From IMG/VR virus record IMGVR_UViG_3300034374_009254, positions 37,259 to 101,258 of that record: 64,000 bases of DNA, one strand, 5' to 3'. Source of the DNA: a virus. How positions within the stretch are numbered: position 1 is the first letter of the stretch; each line of letters begins with the position of its first letter. The position numbers were made by a program, and so were the translations under genes. The notes beneath the pieces were generated by a model. It did no database searches, had not been told where the DNA came from, and saw nothing but the letters and a program-made list of their open reading frames with translations. Positions 4,970 to 64,000 of this stretch are shown here, one piece after another.

Positions 4970-6219
4970 TATGGTACCGGTGTCATCACAATTTTGCCGC
5001 CTGCTTGTTCTGCTCCTCCCGCCGTGTTAGAAACTGAAGTTGCTCCATTTCCTATAAAACCGGAGCCACCGCCACCGCCTGCACCACCCGCAGAAGCGCC
5101 TCCGCCTCCACCGCCGTAGTAGCCTCCGCCACCACCACCTTGCCAGCCGTCTCCACCTTTGTATCCTCCTCTACCTCCAGGAGCCCATCCATCACCTCCT
5201 GGACCATTTGTAGAGTTATAGAATCCATTGCCTCCTTGTCTAAAAGAGCCCGCGCTACCGCTTCCACGATCGCCAGATCCTCCACCGCCTCCAGCAGTTT
5301 GAGTACCTCCACCGCCTCCGTATGCGTTCCAACCACTTACTTTTGTTCCGCCACCGCCCGAGTCACCTCCTCCATTACCTCCTGTAGTATTACCACTACC
5401 GCCACCACCACCGCCTACGATATATGGAGTATCTGCATTTGTACTACTATAAACTGCAGAAGCCCCTCCTCCAGACCCCGTACCAGGCGCAGCAGCTCCT
5501 ACACGTAATTTAATGGATCCGCCCGCAGGAATAGAATAAGTAGCAATAGCACGACCTCCCGTACCGGCAGAACTGCCACCTTGAACATGTCCTGAACCTC
5601 CTTGTACATCAAACTGAAGTACGACAGCATTAGTATTATTATTTGTAACTGTGTATTCTTGGGTTGTATCAGTCAAAGAAATTGAAGCTGCTCCATTAAC
5701 TGAGTCCCAGCTACTAGCTCCATCTATAGAGGGGCTGAAGTCAAGAAGGCCAGAATAGAAAGATAAATTCATAGTGCTTGTTTTTGAAGATACATTCACA
5801 CCGTCACTTGCTTTAAATCTTAAACTAAACGTGCCGGCATCTGCCTCCGTAGTAGTAGGTGTTACAGTAAAGGTTCCACCGCTATTTGTGATTGTAGCCT
5901 GTGCTTGATTACTTGGAACAGTATCATGTGAATATGTTATTGGAAATCCTTCTGGATCAGTCGCAGCAACAGTAATCACTGTTGCAGTACCGTCATCATT
6001 TAAGTCATAACTTGCAGCGGGTTCTGTTGTAAACTCTGGAAGTTCGTCTGCTCCAGAAGCTACACGATCCCACTCTGATCCATCCCAGACATAAATACCT
6101 CCAGTATCTAAAGCAAGTACAAGGTCTCCTGCACTATTTCCACTGGAAGGAAACGCAGCAAAGTTTGCATAAGATTTAACTATTGCTCCGCTTGCTTTTA
6201 CGTCAGAATAATTTGCCAT
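4969..6219 (-). CDS. Glycine-rich putative adhesin, paralog of 3668-4969
   Basis: Start MANYSDVKA (cf. MANYSDIKA of the paralog) at 6219 overlaps the upstream stop; same architecture. Confidence 0.7.
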   Translation of the reverse strand: MANYSDVKASGAIVKSYANFAAFPSSGNSAGDLVLALDTGGIYVWDGSEWDRVASGADELPEFTTEPAASYDLNDDGTATVITVAATDPEGFPITYSHDTVPSNQAQATITNSGGTFTVTPTTTEADAGTFSLRFKASDGVNVSSKTSTMNLSFYSGLLDFSPSIDGASSWDSVNGAASISLTDTTQEYTVTNNNTNAVVLQFDVQGGSGHVQGGSSAGTGGRAIATYSIPAGGSIKLRVGAAAPGTGSGGGASAVYSSTNADTPYIVGGGGGGSGNTTGGNGGGDSGGGGTKVSGWNAYGGGGGTQTAGGGGGSGDRGSGSAGSFRQGGNGFYNSTNGPGGDGWAPGGRGGYKGGDGWQGGGGGGYYGGGGGGASAGGAGGGGGSGFIGNGATSVSNTAGGAEQAGGKIVMTPVP

Positions 6220-51733: not shown

Positions 51734-52195
51734 TTAGTCCTCCTTGAGTAGTTTCTCCATCAGCTTTCCGTAATTACCTTGGCCAAATGGCAAACCCTCA
51801 GTATTGATTTGTACATTGTTTTGAGTTCTTACGTTTGAAGTCTCTGCTTTCACCATTTCGGCTTGAGCTTTGATTTCATCCATTCTCATACGATGCGCCA
51901 TCTGAAGTAAGTCTGCCAAGTCTTTACTTGAGTATACTCCGGTTTCTTGCGCCTCCTCTAATTTTGATTTAATGATTTCGTCAAGGGCTGTAGCAATATT
52001 ATTCTTGTTACGAAACCCCATGTCTAAGTATACAGTATCTATATACTTTTTTACTTCTCGCTTATTAAGTATATCAACAACTTTATTTTCAGGAACGGCT
52101 AAATACTCGCACACTGCACGAATATTTCCAAATTGCAAATAGCAATTTGCCACTTCCAACCCTTCTGGAGAGATTGTTGTTAATTCCTTACTCAT
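51734..52195 (-). CDS. terS: Terminase small subunit (T5-type)
   Basis: SPEGLEVANCYLQ...EVKKYID..Y.D.GFRN...KLEEAQETG..S.KDL.DLL.MAH.MRMDE closely resembles T5 TerS as recalled. Confidence 0.88.
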   Translation of the reverse strand: MSKELTTISPEGLEVANCYLQFGNIRAVCEYLAVPENKVVDILNKREVKKYIDTVYLDMGFRNKNNIATALDEIIKSKLEEAQETGVYSSKDLADLLQMAHRMRMDEIKAQAEMVKAETSNVRTQNNVQINTEGLPFGQGNYGKLMEKLLKED

Positions 52196-52324: not shown

Positions 52325-52924
52325 TTAAGATCCCCACTGATCTGCCATTGCTGCGGCAATTCCAAAGAACGTGATAGATCGTTCTTTGCCCTGTCCTCCT
52401 CCGAACTTGTCATATCCAGTATCTCCTTGGTTGCCCCATCTTGGCTTACCATTTACTATTCGAGGTTCAACATACCCCGTAGGTTGTAAGGGTGCCAAGC
52501 CCCTCAGCCACAAACCCGTTTTCTTTGACGCATCTTCTTCGTAGTTATAGGGCTGGACGTATTGGGGCTTTGGCATAAAATCGAGGCGGGTATTAATGCA
52601 ACCCACCGGGTTCTCAATGCACATTTTTTCTACGGGAGCTTCCCATAGTTTTGTAATAAATTTTAAGGCTTCTTCTGTTTTTTCCGCTCTTCCCGGGACT
52701 TTGTTGTTCCAATGTAGTCCAGAAGAAGCCAGATAGGTGCAAGGAGGGTGCAAAATAGCAATATCCCAGTCATTGTTATATAGTACATCTAGTACGTCTC
52801 CTTGGTAGTGAACGCCATGAGGACTCTCGCTAGGCAAGAGATCGCAAGAAACAGCATCGTGCCCCATTGCATTGAAACAATCTCGCACGGTTCCTGAAAA
52901 CTCACACCCTACTAATACTTTCAA
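52325..52924 (-). CDS. Short DNA cytosine-C5 methyltransferase-like protein
   Basis: KVLVGCEFSG (SAM-binding), HPPC (catalytic), IENP motifs. Confidence 0.8.
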   Translation of the reverse strand: MKVLVGCEFSGTVRDCFNAMGHDAVSCDLLPSESPHGVHYQGDVLDVLYNNDWDIAILHPPCTYLASSGLHWNNKVPGRAEKTEEALKFITKLWEAPVEKMCIENPVGCINTRLDFMPKPQYVQPYNYEEDASKKTGLWLRGLAPLQPTGYVEPRIVNGKPRWGNQGDTGYDKFGGGQGKERSITFFGIAAAMADQWGS

Positions 52925-53081
52925 TTCTAATCACCGTTGATTTTAAAACGTCTTCGAAAGAGCCATCGCTTTTGAGAATAATCAGACGATCGCTACTACC
53001 ATTATTTAATTCTTTTGGCATTGCACCAGTTACTTCAAGTGTATGCCCTTTTGTCCAATGTTTGTAAATTACTTTTACCAT
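52902..53081 (-). CDS. 59-aa hypothetical protein (not in ORF track)
   Basis: GAGG RBS, MVKVIYKHWTKGH...; downstream of a TTGACA-18-TACAAT promoter. Confidence 0.6.
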   Translation of the reverse strand: MVKVIYKHWTKGHTLEVTGAMPKELNNGSSDRLIILKSDGSFEDVLKSTVIRIESISRV

Positions 53082-53198
53082 GTGTACCTCTGTGAGATTA
53101 TGCTATATTGTATCCCGAAAGAGCACCAAATGTCAAGGCTTATTTTTGGTTAGGTGTTCAAAAAACCCCAAAGTTTTACGTGTGGGGTAGCGCGCGCA

Positions 53199-53217
53199 AA
53201 TGAGAATCATTCTCGTC
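53199..53217. promoter_or_regulatory. Fur-box-like operator
   Basis: AATGAGAATCATTCTCGTC, a 7-1-7 inverted repeat matching AATGAnAATnATTnTCATT. Confidence 0.7.
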
Positions 53218-53386
53218 TAGAAACCGCCCACCCCGGCCTGGCCTATAGCACAGACCCGGCCCGGCGTCAAGCAATTTTTTTGTGAAATATTCACATAAAA
53301 AAAGCTGTACTTTTGGGCACGGGTTCGGTTATAATCTTTTCATCGGATGGGGATTGGCCCTGTCCCTTTTTAAAAGGTAGCATCTT

Positions 53387-53680
53387 ATGTCTAACTACAC
53401 TGATAAAATGGTCGCGGCGATTCGCTCTGCGGCTCCTCTTAACCTCGCCAAAGCTAAGGCACTTGCCGAGCAATTCGGGAGCGTATCACATCGCTCGGTC
53501 ATTAGCAAGGCGCAAAGCCTCGGCGTTGAATACGTCAAGGCCGCTCCCGCCGCGCGTCAGCCTCGCGGCATCACTAAGGCGGAATATCTAGCCGCCATTC
53601 GCAAGGGTTTAAACCTTGCTGATCGCGAAGGCGATCTAACCAAGGCGGAGCTTTCCGCCGTGTTGCAGGCTATCGCATGA
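53387..53680 (+). CDS. T5 A2/D3-like DNA-binding protein
   Basis: NYT...LAEQFG..S.RSVISK...GVEYVK...TKAEYL pattern. Confidence 0.75.
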   Translation: MSNYTDKMVAAIRSAAPLNLAKAKALAEQFGSVSHRSVISKAQSLGVEYVKAAPAARQPRGITKAEYLAAIRKGLNLADREGDLTKAELSAVLQAIA

Positions 53681-53874
53681 TAGCCTTTGCCGCTTGGATC
53701 GGGGCCGCTTGCATGATGGCGGCCCCTTTCATCATCGACACGAGCGCGGGAAAATATCTTGCGATTGTCGGTTTGGCATTATTAACATTGCAAGCGATTG
53801 CCAATCGGTGCTATAATCTGGTCTTGCTTAACATCGTTGGTATCGGAGGATATTTTTATGCGCTTTATCTATGA
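53677..53874 (+). CDS. Small multi-TM membrane protein
   Basis: Hydrophobic 65 aa, ATGA overlap. Confidence 0.7.
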   Translation: MIAFAAWIGAACMMAAPFIIDTSAGKYLAIVGLALLTLQAIANRCYNLVLLNIVGIGGYFYALYL

Positions 53875-54331
53875 TTTAGATCACACTGTGATCGACTCGT
53901 CACATCGTCAGCTTACACTTGCTGACGGCTCACTCGATCTGGATCACTGGATCGAAAACAACACGCCCGAAAAAATCGCGCGTGACCGACTGCTACCGCT
54001 TGCCCGTCACTGGCGAGCGCAACGCGAACGCGGCTGTGAGATCGTGGTCTGCACTGCTCGCGTTATGGGTGCGGCAGATTACGAATATCTGCGCGCAAAT
54101 AACCTCGAATGGGATGCTTGCCTATCGCGCCCACTCGGTAACACTAACCCAGACGGCGAGCTAAAATTTGCACTATTGCAAAAATACGCTCGCGCAAAGA
54201 CTCACTCATGGGCTAGGTTTTGCAAATTTAGCCTAATGATAGATGACAATAAAAACGTCATCTCTTACTTGACTGCTCGCGGCTTGCGGGTTTATAATGC
54301 ACTTGAAATTAACGCGAGGTTAGCGGCATGA
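53858..54331 (+). CDS. HAD-family phosphatase
   Basis: Motif I DLDHTV, motif II TAR, K, motif IV IDD; GGAGG RBS before ATG 53858. Confidence 0.85.
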   Translation: MRFIYDLDHTVIDSSHRQLTLADGSLDLDHWIENNTPEKIARDRLLPLARHWRAQRERGCEIVVCTARVMGAADYEYLRANNLEWDACLSRPLGNTNPDGELKFALLQKYARAKTHSWARFCKFSLMIDDNKNVISYLTARGLRVYNALEINARLAA

Positions 54332-54837
54332 TAATTCGATCTACTGACTCAATCCCAGAAATCACCCCGATCTCTGGCATGGCTTGGCACTACGTTTGGG
54401 AATTGCTCGAATTTGGTGTTTTCAAAAACGGCTACGCTCGACACGCCTACAAGAACGGCAAGCATGGCGGCATTGAGCGTGTGCGCTGGTGTTTGCAAGA
54501 TTGCGAGGACGCTTTCGGCTACAATCGCGGAGAGCTTCACGCTCGCATCTGGCGGATGCGTTTGGGCGACAACGAAACGGTGCTCGCGGCAGAGCAATTT
54601 GTTCACTCACGCGAGGCAAACCGCGAGGACAAAGCCATGCTGTATGACAAGCGTTGGCTTGACGTTGGCGGTAAATCGGAATTTTATTTCTGTGACCAAA
54701 AAACTGCGTTGACTCGCTACGCCAATAGCTACCGCAAAACCAATCTGGCAATCGGTGCGGCGGTGCGTGATTTCAAACGCGCAAAGGGAATCCACGGCTG
54801 TCCCTACCCTGTTGACTATGAGGAGGTTTTAGCATGA
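54328..54837 (+). CDS. Hypothetical protein, possibly GIY-YIG/T5orf172-like
   Basis: Weak pattern FKNGY...R...EQFVH...EFY. Confidence 0.45.
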   Translation: MIIRSTDSIPEITPISGMAWHYVWELLEFGVFKNGYARHAYKNGKHGGIERVRWCLQDCEDAFGYNRGELHARIWRMRLGDNETVLAAEQFVHSREANREDKAMLYDKRWLDVGGKSEFYFCDQKTALTRYANSYRKTNLAIGAAVRDFKRAKGIHGCPYPVDYEEVLA

Positions 54838-55433
54838 AAAACCTACAAGCAAAACTAAACCGGCTCGCGGAGAATCTCTCCGCTCCGGTTGCGGTAATTT
54901 TAGAAGGGCGAGACACTGCGGGCAAATCCTCGACCATTCGAGAATTGACCCACTACCTGCCGCCCGATCTTTATAGCGTTTGCCTTTCGCACAAACCTAG
55001 CAAACGCGCAATGTCATCATGGCTGGCATATTGGGAAACCAAACTACCAAAGCAAAACCAAATCGTGTTTTTTGATCGCTCTTGGTATTCTCGCGCGATG
55101 GTGCAACATATCAACGGATGGTGTACACCGAAACAATACGAGATTTTTATGCGCGACCATAAAAATTGGGAAGCTAATCAGCCGGTGCGCTTGATTAAAT
55201 TTTGGCTTTCGATTTCGGAAGATGAACAAAAACGCCGAATCGAAATGCGAAAAAATTCTCCGCTGACTTATTGGAAATTTTCGCCCAACGATGAAAATGC
55301 GCTTTCACACTATGACAGAATGAGCATTTTGAAAGAGCGCGTTATTGATTCCGATTGGCACACAATTAATTTTGAAAATAAACGCGCGGGAATAAAAAAA
55401 TTGCTTGACACATTATGCCGCGATCTGGCATAA
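54834..55433 (+). CDS. ppk2: Polyphosphate kinase 2
   Basis: Walker A EGRDTAGKSS, FDRSWY, KFWLSISEDEQKRR, WKFSPND. Confidence 0.93.
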   Translation: MKNLQAKLNRLAENLSAPVAVILEGRDTAGKSSTIRELTHYLPPDLYSVCLSHKPSKRAMSSWLAYWETKLPKQNQIVFFDRSWYSRAMVQHINGWCTPKQYEIFMRDHKNWEANQPVRLIKFWLSISEDEQKRRIEMRKNSPLTYWKFSPNDENALSHYDRMSILKERVIDSDWHTINFENKRAGIKKLLDTLCRDLA

Positions 55434-55479
55434 TGTTTTTATCGACTCGGGGATTGGCCCCATTTAAGGAGAGCGAAAA

Positions 55480-55695
55480 ATGTCTGCACAATACTCTAGC
55501 CACGTTACTCAGGAAGACCTTTTCGACTTGGCGGCTTACCGTCACTTTGACACTTGCCGGAGCTGTGGCAAGACCTGCCCTGCCGCTAACTACTACGAAG
55601 GGCGCGTTTGCCACGTTTGCTACAACGAAGACCTAGACTTTTGGTCAGCTTGGGACTGGAGGTTCGAGTGGGAGTGGAGCCGAAAAGCCAAGTGA
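55480..55695 (+). CDS. Small Zn-finger protein with Trp-rich tail
   Basis: CRSC...CHVC; AAGGAG RBS; own promoter TTGACA-18-CATAAT. Confidence 0.7.
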   Translation: MSAQYSSHVTQEDLFDLAAYRHFDTCRSCGKTCPAANYYEGRVCHVCYNEDLDFWSAWDWRFEWEWSRKAK

Positions 55696-55697
55696 CG

Positions 55698-55713
55698 TGT
55701 TCCACGTGGAACA
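55698..55713. promoter_or_regulatory. parS: parS centromere-like site
   Basis: Perfect 16-bp palindrome TGTTCCACGTGGAACA matching the chromosomal ParB-binding consensus. Confidence 0.8.
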
Positions 55714-55750
55714 ACGCTAGGCCACGACCCTACCTGCCTTCGGCCAGGAC

Positions 55751-55795
55751 CAAGCGACCAAGCGGTCGCTTGACAATTTTGGCGCGGCCGCGCCA
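55751..55795. repeat. Two adjacent inverted repeats
   Basis: CAAGCGACC-AAGC-GGTCGCTTG and TGGCGCGGCCGCGCCA. Confidence 0.85.
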
Positions 55796-55836
55796 GTAGT
55801 AGTTCGACGACGACTTTTTTTGGTGTACCGCGCGCC

Positions 55837-56160
55837 AGAATAAGTGCAAACGCGACCAATGTCAAGTCTTTTTTGCACGATTGGATAAAATTTTTTTAAA
55901 TTGTTTTGGTCTTATAAAAGCGCCGCGCCGATTATACAGTGCGGGGTCAATGCTGTCAAGTACTTTTTGCACAATTGCCCAAAATAATTCGACGCGCTGG
56001 TCTCTGCTAGACCCCGTGCCCACCCTGGTAGTATACGCGCAAGGCCCGGAATTGTCAAGAACTTTTTGCGGCAATTGTGCAAGATTTTTAAAAGCGCGAG
56101 CCTGGCGGCGCCGATTATACAGTAGTGCGCCGACGATGTCAAGTACTTTTTGCACAATTC
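55837..56160 (-). repeat. Array of four ~84-99-bp units, each a leftward sigma70 promoter
   Basis: TTGACA-17-TATTCT/TATAAT/TATACT/TATAAT; -35 at 55860-65, 55954-59, 56053-58, 56137-42; shared GCAAAAA upstream tract. Confidence 0.85.
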
Positions 56161-56175
56161 GTGAAAATAAATCGC

Positions 56176-56374
56176 TTGACTAGTCTCTGCGGGGACGGTA
56201 TAATTAGCGCAAATTGTAGAAACCTGGGGCATCCCCGCGACAATTTTTGATAATTTTGGTAGATTCGAGAAAATAATTCTTGACACGATTAGGTCGTGTG
56301 CGGCCCCCCGGAATTCGCTTGCGTTGGGGTTACGACAAAAAAGATTTGACATTTGTAACCGAAGCGAGTATAAT
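56176..56374 (+). promoter_or_regulatory. Two rightward early promoters
   Basis: TTGACT-17-TATAAT (56176-56204) and TTGACA-17-TATAAT (56346-56374). Confidence 0.85.
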
Positions 56375-56400: not shown

Positions 56401-56589
56401 ATGACTGATGTACAATTCGAAGCCTTTAGCTTATACGCAGGTATGCGCTATGACGGTATGTCTAAGCTGGATGCATTTATGTACACCATACGGTGTCTGC
56501 TTCCAGAAGAGGACTACCCTAACGGATACGATGATAGTGCGATTGAATTATACTCTTGGCTTCGACAAAAGGTAAAACTGGATGACTAG
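56401..56589 (+). CDS. Hypothetical early protein
   Basis: GGAGG RBS, first gene after the promoter. Confidence 0.75.
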   Translation: MTDVQFEAFSLYAGMRYDGMSKLDAFMYTIRCLLPEEDYPNGYDDSAIELYSWLRQKVKLDD

Positions 56590-62886: not shown

Positions 62887-63033
62887 TTGATAACTACTAC
62901 TGAATTTGCAATTTTTATTTTTTGCCTTCTTGGGTGTGGAATACACTCTTGGAAGTTAGGAAAATCACAAGGAGTAGAGGCTACCGTCCAGTACATGATT
63001 GATACGGGAGTACTCGAAGTAGAAGATGAATAA
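62887..63033 (+). CDS. 48-aa single-TM protein (not in ORF track)
   Basis: AAGGAG RBS, TTG start, MITTTEFAIFIFCLLGCGIHSWKLGKSQGVEATV... Confidence 0.65.
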   Translation: MITTTEFAIFIFCLLGCGIHSWKLGKSQGVEATVQYMIDTGVLEVEDE

Positions 63034-63091
63034 TTCGTTGAAGTAATAAACTAACGGTTGGACTCGGGTGCAATTCCCGACAGCTCCACCA
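63032..63091 (+). ncRNA. ssrA: tmRNA acceptor piece (permuted gene, 3' half first)
   Basis: GAC + T-arm TCGGG-TGCAATT-CCCGA + CAGCTCC-A-CCA. Confidence 0.9.
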
Positions 63092-63105
63092 TAAGGAGTT
63101 TTATA

Positions 63106-63276
63106 ATGCGTATACCAATGAAAGGTGGTGATGAGTTTGATGGACTGTCTCGACGTTCTAAAAGATTTTTTCTTTGGAGAGCCGGAGAAAGAAAGAGCCT
63201 CAAGAGAAAGTACAATAAACGACGCAGAAAGACTTTTTATGATGGGGCTGATACAGACTCGACAGGCGTACAGTAG
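63106..63276 (+). CDS. 56-aa basic protein encoded in the tmRNA intervening segment
   Basis: AAGGAG at 63093-98, ATG at 63106, MRIPMKGGDEFDGLSRRSKRFFLWRAGERKSLKRKYNKRRRKTFYDGADTDSTGVQ. Confidence 0.75.
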   Translation: MRIPMKGGDEFDGLSRRSKRFFLWRAGERKSLKRKYNKRRRKTFYDGADTDSTGVQ

Positions 63277-63410
63277 ACTTATGGAGAATTCGTGCGGAAG
63301 CTACGTTAACGCAACAAACTTAATAAATGCCAACGACGACATTTATGCACTTGCTGCCTAATTAAAGGTAAGCGGGGTGGGAGGAGCCTGGCAACAGAAA
63401 TCCTCAAGCT
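63244..63410 (+). ncRNA. ssrA: tmRNA coding piece; tag ANDDIYALAA
   Basis: GGGGCTGATACAGACTCGAC 5' end, pk1-like element, ATAAAT-GCC resume context, tag 63329-63361. Confidence 0.92.
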
Positions 63411-63429
63411 ACTCCAAAGGAGGAGAAAT

Positions 63430-63822
63430 ATGAAGAAACTTTTAGCGGGGTTTGCACTTCTCGGCCTTTCAGCCGGAATCGGTGCAGAAACTGTAATTAA
63501 CTATGATGATGGCTCTACCTACACTTTGGAAGAGAATCAAGAAATTTATATCAGTACGCCGAACAGTGCTTTATTTAAGCGGCAGCTCATGAAAAATAAG
63601 GACACTTTTTTTCGTGTTCAAGAGCCTTGGACAAAGCGTGACTATGTGCCTGATCCAGACGGAACTGATACTATGGTCGTAGGCTCACACGAATGGTGTA
63701 AAGCATACAAGCCTTGGCACGAAGGTCTTACGTTTAACATGATTTCATGGCAACGTGCTTGTGATACCAACAACGATGGTGTGTATGATGAGGACGACGA
63801 CAGATGGCCTGACGAAGGCTAA
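63430..63822 (+). CDS. Secreted/periplasmic protein with C-terminal EF-hand-like loop
   Basis: Signal peptide; DTNNDGVYDEDD. Confidence 0.75.
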   Translation: MKKLLAGFALLGLSAGIGAETVINYDDGSTYTLEENQEIYISTPNSALFKRQLMKNKDTFFRVQEPWTKRDYVPDPDGTDTMVVGSHEWCKAYKPWHEGLTFNMISWQRACDTNNDGVYDEDDDRWPDEG

Positions 63823-63908
63823 ATTACTGGGGGCTTCGGTCCCCTTCTAAAATCGCATTACTGAAAAGGATGCAAAGCGTGTACCGAAAGGGCACAGGAG
63901 AAAAAACC

Positions 63909-64000
63909 ATGACAAAGCAAAATTTATTGAATATTAACGACTTTCACAAGTTCTTTTTGGGACTTGATCTTCATCCAGATTTCTTTTCAAACTCCCCCAT
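63909..64000 (+). CDS. Probable small heat-shock protein Hsp20, partial
   Basis: AGGAG RBS; MTKQNLLNINDFHKFFLGLD resembles the IbpA-type xIGFD N-terminus; only 30 codons visible. Confidence 0.45.
   Translation, partial: MTKQNLLNINDFHKFFLGLDLHPDFFSNSP

Follow-up and report, generated by a model that had tools for sequence, protein, structure and literature searches.

We found a row of four tandem sigma-70-type promoters that drive no gene of their own, and that recurs in at least 61 distinct phage sequences. The row lies in a stretch of 64,000 nucleotides, hereafter the window, which forms the last 64 kb of the 101,258-bp virus contig IMGVR_UViG_3300034374_009254 (IMG/VR); positions refer to the window unless given as genome positions. 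The four minus-strand units, U1 to U4 (Table 1), face leftward into the end of a convergent operon and toward a host-type parS site. With a probability of roughly 0.4 we read this array as a conditional promoter battery, which would send convoys of RNA polymerase against the pre-early-like operon and across parS.

All four sites were recovered by a consensus scan and by a separate genome-wide scan, in agreement with the initial annotation of this DNA, which had described four units with TTGACA and a 17-bp spacer, spaced 94, 99 and 84 bp apart (-35 boxes at 55865, 55959, 56058 and 56142; hexamer scores in Table 1 are out of 12). Under a first-order Markov model of the genome about 6 sites with a score of ≥10/12 and a 17-bp spacer are expected by chance per strand in 101 kb, and the probability of four such sites within 306 bp is about 4e-9, or about 3e-6 when corrected for all intervals of this kind. 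When the four units are aligned, what they have in common is limited to the two hexamers and about 20 bp of sequence before the -35 (CAATTGTGCAAAAAGTAC), and the spacers differ. U2 duplicates U4 as part of an 86-nt direct repeat (D2) with 77% identity; this additional copy is a minority feature of the relatives and was also found at the loci L031/L004, L010 and L073.

The G+C-rich discriminators noted at the outset are equally clear. Of the first 8 nt past the -10, all eight are G or C in U1, U2 and U4 and five in U3, whereas in the genome's 22 remaining strong promoters only 0–4 of these eight positions are G or C. Because of this difference the array promoters would fall into a kinetic class distinct from the other strong promoters of the phage. 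The second base past the -10 is G in U1, U2 and U4, and C in U3 alone. The A-tract upstream of each unit is present as annotated, but it is not specific to the array, as AAAAAT-N4-5 precedes the -35 of every strong phage promoter (general pattern AAAAAT-N4-5-TTGAC(A/T)-17-TATAAT-ATAT). On the far side of U4 the array stands back-to-back with rightward early promoters, as had been stated. The -10 of the first of these is gone in some relatives, while the second is kept in the T5-like relatives reaching that far. Beyond its hexamers the first rightward promoter zone (56155-56216, plus strand) resembles P2 of the Escherichia coli ribosomal RNA operon rrnB (AAATAAAT-GCTTGAC, spacer GCGGG-A-GG), which may be chance.

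The array is present at the same place in all seven IMG/VR contigs that were reached independently via a neighbouring 144-aa protein (72–77% identity). About 130 more contigs, mostly marine or estuarine, were collected from viral and metagenome collections via the sequence past the U3 -10, and 61 distinct arrays with adequate flank were left after removal of duplicates. Two promoters were counted in 4 of them, three in 48, four in 6 and five in 3, with a unit spacing of mostly 75–107 bp between -35 boxes. Three promoter types recur across the relatives in a fixed order: type A (CAATTGTGCAAAAAGTAC-TTGACA-17/18-TATAAT-CGGCGC..GCGC-TTTT), represented in the window by U4 and its duplicate U2; type B (TTGACA-17-TATACT-ACCAGGGTGGGCACGGGGTC), represented by U3; and type C, present in at least one copy (AAAAAAATTTT...GCAAAAAAGAC-TTGACA-17-TA(T/A)A(A/C/T)T-GGCGC), represented by U1. 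Type C is kept in 59 relatives, including its A/T-rich, UP-like upstream tract (AAAAAAATTTT plus GCAAAAAAGAC) at -40 to -60. Across 52–61 distinct sequences the information content is 1.9 bits per base in the -35 and 1.4–2.0 in the -10, compared with 0.75–0.95 in the spacers and 0.2–0.55 beyond +20. To judge from the alignments, this pattern is the signature of selection for promoter function, and it supports the annotation, which had proposed selection on the grounds that only the promoter elements and their flanks are conserved. The array is always located at the boundary of the convergent operon and the early promoters.

The same profile bears on the idea that the array is non-functional debris of tandem duplication or cassette shuffling, comparable to empty promoter/stem-loop cassettes of the PeSL kind. 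The units are indeed related by duplication (U2 copies U4), a GC hairpin downstream resembles a unit without its -10, and extra degenerate copies of the U3 module are found at 53.2–53.3 kb. Debris would decay, however, while here the hexamers stay near consensus in 61 distinct arrays as the spacers drift; moreover, PeSL cassettes of T4-type phages flank shuffled small open reading frames (ORFs), and the abutting units of the array have no ORFs between them. We therefore give this explanation almost no credence.

That the promoters point at no gene of their own, as first annotated, holds in every relative. We found no conserved ORF in the leftward transcripts, neither in the window nor in the relatives, and no ORF between the units. 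A search of Rfam with E-values up to 1 over 52.5–57.5 kb gave no match, RNAalifold on 32 three-unit arrays returned 0 compensatory pairs and only pairings between invariant columns, and terminator scans of the relatives found no conserved leftward terminator. When the region and the U3 module were compared by blastn with 50,697 cultured phage records, again no match was obtained. A promoter with its UP element takes up about -60 to +20 (our own estimate rather than the output of a tool). At a spacing of 75–107 bp the transcribed stretch of one unit is thus the upstream element of the next, with no payload between them. Complete promoters packed this closely suggest that the function may lie in the binding and firing of polymerase itself. 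The array is covered by RNA-library contigs from three metatranscriptomes; these are unstranded, with no readable transcript starts, and indicate no more than the presence of the region in such libraries. Differences in metatranscriptome depth along the DNA, and uncovered stretches, were given no weight. Metatranscriptomes containing this phage include ones from salt marsh and freshwater.

U3 carries a 20-nt element, ACCAGGGTGGGCACGGGGTC, directly past its -10. The element occurs once in the window, is invariant throughout the T5-like relatives, and is found exactly or with 1 mismatch in all seven relatives obtained via the neighbouring protein. It is known from three phage lineages and always directly abuts a -10 hexamer, in the two other lineages (class ii, loci L052, L094 and L048; class iii, loci L132, L046 and L039) that of an extended -10 promoter. 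In class ii it heads a predicted transcript of about 110 nt that is closed by a clean terminator (AGCCGCGAAGCGGCTTTTT), after which a second promoter follows with a likewise G-rich start (TGGACGGTGGCTGGGGACGGAGGTGG). Only the first 14 nt or so of the U3 transcript are conserved. The element was not found in cultured phages. A screen of 185,579 species genomes for the element and for a 19-nt upstream/-35 motif gave only chance hits in high-GC coding DNA, plus one 1.1-kb phage fragment binned into a metagenome-assembled genome, and we rejected host mimicry on this basis.

It is conceivable, if rather unlikely, that U3, perhaps alone, encodes a small RNA, either regulatory or acting in cis as a leader, with the 5' end GUGGGCACGGGGUC..., the other units being accessory promoters. 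Such an RNA would fit the constant position of the element next to a -10 in three lineages with otherwise unrelated flanks, the short terminated transcript of class ii, and the GTCT...AGAC following the element, which can pair in all T5-like relatives. In the T5-like arrays, however, no terminator follows U3 and no covariation was seen. A hairpin anchored on the element proved unconvincing, with stems of ≥5 bp in 93% of sequences versus 81% of shuffles. Such an RNA would have no complementary target in the phage and no copy in a host, and the invariance includes the untranscribed discriminator, which hints at a constraint at the level of DNA or of the promoter complex. The element could mark where a small RNA begins, or could act as a signal within the promoter complex. 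A leftward small RNA, named in the initial annotation as something that could explain the promoters, would thus apply in part and to U3 only, given the predicted short transcript of another lineage, and does not extend to the other units.

Several further observations concern U3. Contigs that break at the element were considered as physical ends, and are best explained as assembly breaks at a shared k-mer. Some relatives have a sigma-54-like TGGCAC-N5-CTGCA in the U3 loop; it lacks conservation, and we dismissed it as chance. The left intergenic region holds a degenerate copy of the U3 module on the minus strand (53190-53270, TTGACG-17-TATAGG-CCAGGCCGGGGTGGGCGGTTTCTAG) and a second one, TGGGCACGGGTTC, inside the spacer of a plus-strand promoter (53309-53326, plus strand); these copies were not found in the relatives.

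Downstream of the array the elements keep a constant order. Past the last promoter come about 45 variable nucleotides, then a GC hairpin, next AAAA(T)n and a second hairpin, and finally parS. The leftward orientation toward parS and antisense to the first operon, both part of the initial annotation, hold as described. In the GC hairpin (GGCGC-N4-GCGCC) the 4-nt centre varies among relatives, yet is always made up of G and C. The hairpin looks like a decayed promoter unit, because its flank ACTACTACT-GGCGC matches the spacer end and discriminator of type C minus the TATAAT. The second hairpin, a possible plus-strand terminator of the convergent operon, passed a strict terminator rule in only 11/53 relatives, and its stems differ between them. 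With up to 3 mismatches allowed, parS is located 40–84 bp past the GC hairpin in 59/68 distinct arrays, the symmetric variant TGTTTCACGTGAAACA included, and is absent in 9/68 (13%). In these nine relatives the parS-proximal gene is swapped for a different convergent gene. No ParB_N gene was found in the phage, so any ParB must be that of the host. A palindrome of the left intergenic region, ATGAGAAnnnTTCTCAT (53203-53217), stands directly beside parS in the relative L025 (about 5275-5300).

The genes past the array are convergent to it in 39/39 relatives with enough flank, and the array lies 2.3–2.7 kb from the start of the operon. Between U1 and the operon the window has no leftward terminator, nor do the relatives show one consistently; predicted leftward transcripts should therefore reach at least 140–270 nt antisense into the PPK2 gene.

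These features are best accommodated, in our view, by a function in polymerase traffic. Each unit appears built for maximal recruitment of RNA polymerase, with distal and proximal UP-like A/T tracts, a consensus -35, a spacer of 17–18 bp and a near-consensus -10, while the G+C-rich discriminator and start region would make DNA opening and escape the controllable step. Once licensed, the battery would launch closely spaced polymerases leftward. They would traverse the GC hairpin, the end of the convergent operon and, in 87% of relatives, a host-type parS, and would continue in antisense direction through PPK2 and its upstream genes. What the array puts out would be this traffic and not a product: the convergent operon would be shut down by head-on collisions and by antisense RNA, and the passing polymerases would strip host ParB clamps off parS or stop them from sliding rightward into the early genes. 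At stringent, supercoiling-sensitive promoters G+C-rich discriminators make firing depend on superhelicity, nucleoside triphosphate (NTP) and guanosine tetraphosphate (ppGpp); by analogy, firing of the array should be conditional on the same factors. The anatomy of the promoters, their conservation, the missing payload and the convergent layout are shown by the sequences; we infer the firing, its timing (by supercoiling, NTP/ppGpp level or the order of DNA entry) and its effects on the operon and on ParB. As parS is missing in 9/68 arrays, the universal target would be the convergent operon, and control of ParB a frequent add-on. Of the four mechanisms offered in the initial annotation (injection stop or brake, polymerase sink, ppGpp-sensitive checkpoint, antisense switch on the pre-early genes), antisense or convergent transcription appears to fit the anatomy best, given the convergent genes in all 39 relatives and the missing terminator; the silencing itself we put forward only as what such transcription would do.

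Several points weigh against this reading. Since some arrays have no parS, there must be a target other than ParB. Antisense control could be had from a single strong promoter, and promoters in tandem get in each other's way by occlusion. As the contig closes on itself, neither the physical DNA ends nor the order in which the DNA enters can be placed. The RNA-library contig 55769-56159 includes the U4 promoter itself, which is impossible for an RNA initiated at U4, and may be DNA carry-over or plus-strand read-through. Lastly, fully consensus promoters with G+C-rich starts may be limited at escape and give little full-length RNA, which would favour static occupancy.

Static occupancy is the main rival, to be favoured if the over-consensus promoters are escape-limited, and we regard it as having a real though minor chance. 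Polymerases would then sit on the array in closed, open or abortive complexes, and three or four of them abutting would form a barrier of about 330 bp between operon 1 with parS and the early genes. Such a fence would stop one-dimensional sliders such as ParB clamps, and read-through polymerases; after phage replication the sites could in addition act as a sink for the host polymerase. It is in keeping with a fence that every recognition module matches the consensus or comes close to it, the UP-like tracts and the G two bases past the -10 in U1, U2 and U4 among them, that the spacing of 75–107 bp is near the polymerase footprint as we estimate it, and that payload and terminator are lacking from an array always found at the boundary of convergent operon and early promoters. 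Stable DNA-bound proteins are moreover established roadblocks for ParB (PMC7725951). A fence needs no single orientation, however, yet the orientation is invariant (descent by tandem duplication would also explain this), and the region is covered by RNA-library contigs. As for the sink, four sites per genome would be negligible before replication.

A more specific extension of the traffic reading, which we consider quite unlikely, is that the array is a conditional-centromere switch, in which host ParB is borrowed via parS and gated by growth-dependent promoters. In a growing host, with supercoiled DNA, high NTP and low ppGpp, polymerase convoys would clear ParB and silence operon 1, and lytic development would proceed. 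In a starved host the battery would be silent, and ParB would hold and segregate the phage genome until growth returns.

Published work on ParB gives the traffic reading some precedent. A promoter facing parS was associated with a strong local dip in ParB, which was read as transcription preventing diffusion of the clamps (Debaugny 2018, as presented in Walter 2020, PMC7725951). Compared with RNA polymerase, ParB-DNA clusters are mechanically weak and give way at far smaller forces, and the polymerase transcribes through them (PMC10786196). Both there and here transcription is aimed at parS, in our case at a phage parS without a ParB of its own; the Debaugny case, in the account given by Walter 2020, concerns an incidental chromosomal promoter, whereas the array has multiple promoters and lacks parS in 13% of arrays. 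We found no description in the literature of a dedicated multi-promoter array beside a phage parS.

Control by convergent promoters is familiar from temperate phages, as in lambda oop versus cII, pR/pL interference in coliphage 186, and P22 sar. There, as we propose for the array, a promoter with no gene of its own is directed against an operon, at its 3' part or its promoter, and works by collision or antisense RNA. Those systems differ in being single promoters with defined short RNAs or face-to-face pairs within lysis-lysogeny switches, while the array is a battery of 3–5 units in a T5-like phage of lytic type, with parS in the collision zone. The early promoters A1-A2-A3 of T7 are likewise three strong tandem promoters for the host polymerase near a genome end; they point inward, drive early genes and help DNA entry, in contrast to the array, which points upstream at no gene.

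In architecture the array is also reminiscent of ribosomal RNA promoters. E. coli rrnB has two strong tandem promoters, P1 (TATAAT-GCGCCACC) and P2 (TATTAT-GCACACCCCGCGCC), with 119 bp between them, and shares with the array the spacing of about 100–120 bp, upstream elements rich in A/T and discriminators rich in G+C. In rrn promoters the core is kinetically weak, with 16-bp spacers, imperfect hexamers and C as the second base past the -10, and rRNA is what they drive, whereas the array has 17–18 bp spacers, consensus hexamers and G at this base in three of four units, and drives nothing. The suggestion of a ppGpp-sensitive checkpoint is accordingly only partly borne out: discriminators and UP-like tracts recall rrn P1, while the consensus hexamers, the 17-bp spacer and the G at the second base do not. 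Homology to rrnB P1 was rejected, as a MAFFT alignment of the units shows nothing meaningful beyond architecture, and none of the conserved array motifs was found upstream of rRNA genes in the 185,579 species genomes.

The capsid and protease region of the phage is about 32% identical to that of T5-like phages. T5 is the reference for the proposal that the array is an injection-stop element. On this proposal the array or the GC palindromes would arrest DNA transfer once a short first segment has entered, and only in the second step would the promoters enter and fire. We take the gene order of terminase and dmp-like gene to resemble the right end of T5 beside its terminal repeat, and the small terminase gene terS and a dmp-like gene are adjacent here. 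A conserved untranslated stretch of 700 bp with repeats and palindromes lies at the border of operon 1, as do the T5 repeat regions. The injection stop signal of T5 (iss, Repeat Region 3) contains eight DnaA/DnaA* boxes in pairs 3 bp apart, within inverted repeats of the form IRD'-52 bp-IRC', and no promoters (Davison 2020, bioRxiv 10.1101/866236). Like it, the array region is untranslated, conserved and rich in repeats, follows the first genes as a border and has DnaA-box-like motifs, but its boxes are single and stand in direct repeat within promoter upstream segments, and paired DnaA boxes in 131-bp inverted repeats, as in T5, are lacking. No inverted repeat of >27 nt was found in 52.8–57.2 kb. 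A tblastn search with T5 A1 gave no match (best E 5.7), and one with A2 only a weak match (E 0.008) at genome positions 5245-5556, toward the other contig end. The first ORF (53387-53680; 97 aa) was rejected as an A2 homologue, since BLASTP against A2 gives no alignment. No DNA similarity to the cultured phage records was found, and terminal repeats and ends are not definable in a contig that closes on itself. The injection-stop proposal thus found no support, and we consider it highly improbable. The nick-site motif of T5 (CCCTGCGC or CCCGCGC at four annotated T5 sites) is absent from the array, and motifs of the GGCGC type show no strand-specific pattern genome-wide.

A nearer T5 analogue than iss, as judged by architecture, is probably Repeat Region 1, which contains the tandem leftward pre-early promoters P1, P2 (and P3) (AY587007 annotation). 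Both are conserved untranslated repeat regions with strong tandem sigma-70 promoters, in both an A-tract stands three or four bases before TTGACA, and both have the same direction relative to the dmp-type cluster, with rightward promoters on the other side. The T5 promoters, however, drive real genes (A2, A1, dmp), while the neighbour genes of the array are on the opposite strand in all 39 relatives; and P1 and P2 are A/T-rich past the -10, where the array is G+C-rich.

The two sequences fitting the DnaA box TTWTNCACA (TTTTGCACA) are real at both sites given in the initial annotation. They are single boxes in direct orientation, 183 bp apart, and rather than being paired they belong to the upstream segment that one promoter type conserves. 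With them in mind we considered a transcription-primed replication origin or oriC mimic, in which the G-rich U3 RNA would form a persistent R-loop by A/T-rich DNA. The primary origin of T7 combines tandem promoters with A/T-rich DNA, and T4 oriF and ColE1 use R-loops. In the array, non-template G-runs follow directly after the U3 start, A7T4 tracts lie 30–40 bp downstream, the two boxes fit the DnaA consensus, and parS is adjacent to the array. The A/T tracts, however, need no explanation beyond being the UP-like tracts of the promoter that follows, and matches to TTWTNCACA number 11 genome-wide versus about 6 expected (our own estimate, with uniform base frequencies). The cumulative GC-skew minimum lies at 53–55 kb, where gene orientation switches, and not at the array, and no iterons or initiator gene were found nearby. 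An origin is in our judgement very unlikely.

In the genome as a whole, a long leftward structural block has at its end the genes for the small terminase (51734-52195) and for a methyltransferase (52325-52924), and from about 53.4 kb on every gene is rightward. Rightward operon 1 (53387-55695) has a G+C content of 0.49–0.52 versus about 0.38 for the remaining phage; operon and array lie together inside a stretch of G+C 0.47–0.52 (53000-56000). A short hairpin, GGGGATTGGCCCC, occurs twice, at 53349-53363 and 55445-55459, between promoter and ribosome-binding site of two operon-1 genes. Genome positions 1-523 match the final 505 bp of the window (63496-64000; genome 100754-101258) with 86% identity. 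Since the contig ends overlap at this identity and the relatives are differently permuted, the assembly closes on itself and physical termini cannot be placed. The self-closing ends show strain variation, and the right end of the window is no physical genome end. ARAGORN predicted a permuted (two-piece) transfer-messenger RNA gene at 62999-63452 (plus strand) with the tag ANDDIYALAA.

Table 1. Features of the promoter array and its surroundings (window positions).
Feature	Position	Strand	Remarks
Convergent operon (operon 1)	53387..55695	+	G+C-richer; array points into its end
T5 dmp-like HAD phosphatase	53798-54331	+	30% identity, E 6e-11 to T5 dmp
PPK2 kinase	54834-55433	+	E 8e-41
Small cysteine-rich ORF	55480-55695	+	
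Host-type parS TGTTCCACGTGGAACA	55698..55713	.	about +118 to +133 from U1 start
Hairpin CAAGCGACC-AAGC-GGTCGCTTG then ACAATTTT	55751..55772	+	possible terminator of convergent operon
GC hairpin/palindrome GGCGC-GGCC-GCGCC	55781..55794	.	about +37 to +50 of U1 transcript
U1, type C promoter	55837..55865	-	TTGACA-17-TATTCT, 10/12, then GGCGCGCG
U1 upstream tract AAAAAAATTTT...GCAAAAAAGAC	to ~55905	-	
U2, type A promoter	55931..55959	-	TTGACA-17-TATAAT, 12/12, then CGGCGCGGCGC-TTTT
DnaA-box-fitting TTTTGCACA	55965..55973	+	within conserved CAATTGTGCAAAAAGTAC upstream of U2
20-nt element ACCAGGGTGGGCACGGGGTC	56010..56029	-	abuts U3 -10; discriminator and first transcribed bases
U3, type B promoter	56030..56058	-	TTGACA-17-TATACT, 11/12
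U4, type A promoter	56114..56142	-	TTGACA-17-TATAAT, 12/12, then CGGCGCCGCC...GCGC-TTTT
DnaA-box-fitting TTTTGCACA	56148..56156	+	upstream of U4
Rightward promoter TTGACT-17-TATAAT	56176..56204	+	back-to-back with U4; -10 gone in some relatives
Rightward consensus promoter	56346..56374	+	12/12; serves first early gene (56401-56589)

Tandem promoters and control by convergent promoters are known kinds of regulation; what is unusual here is the multiplicity, the missing payload, the link to parS and the wide conservation in uncultured phages. Promoters are usually explained by the genes they drive, whereas here purifying selection keeps a payload-free battery in at least 61 distinct phage sequences. 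Independently of this, the invariant 20-nt start element of three lineages is a separate unexplained signal, and the units are candidates for promoters of very high strength, perhaps gated by host physiology, for use in marine proteobacterial hosts. If the traffic reading is true, the array would be a compact example from nature of RNA polymerase acting as the regulator, by colliding, by making antisense RNA and by clearing clamps. It would then offer a handle on how T5-like phages outside the Escherichia/Salmonella group silence their first genes without a recognisable A1, and on how a lytic phage makes use of host ParB.

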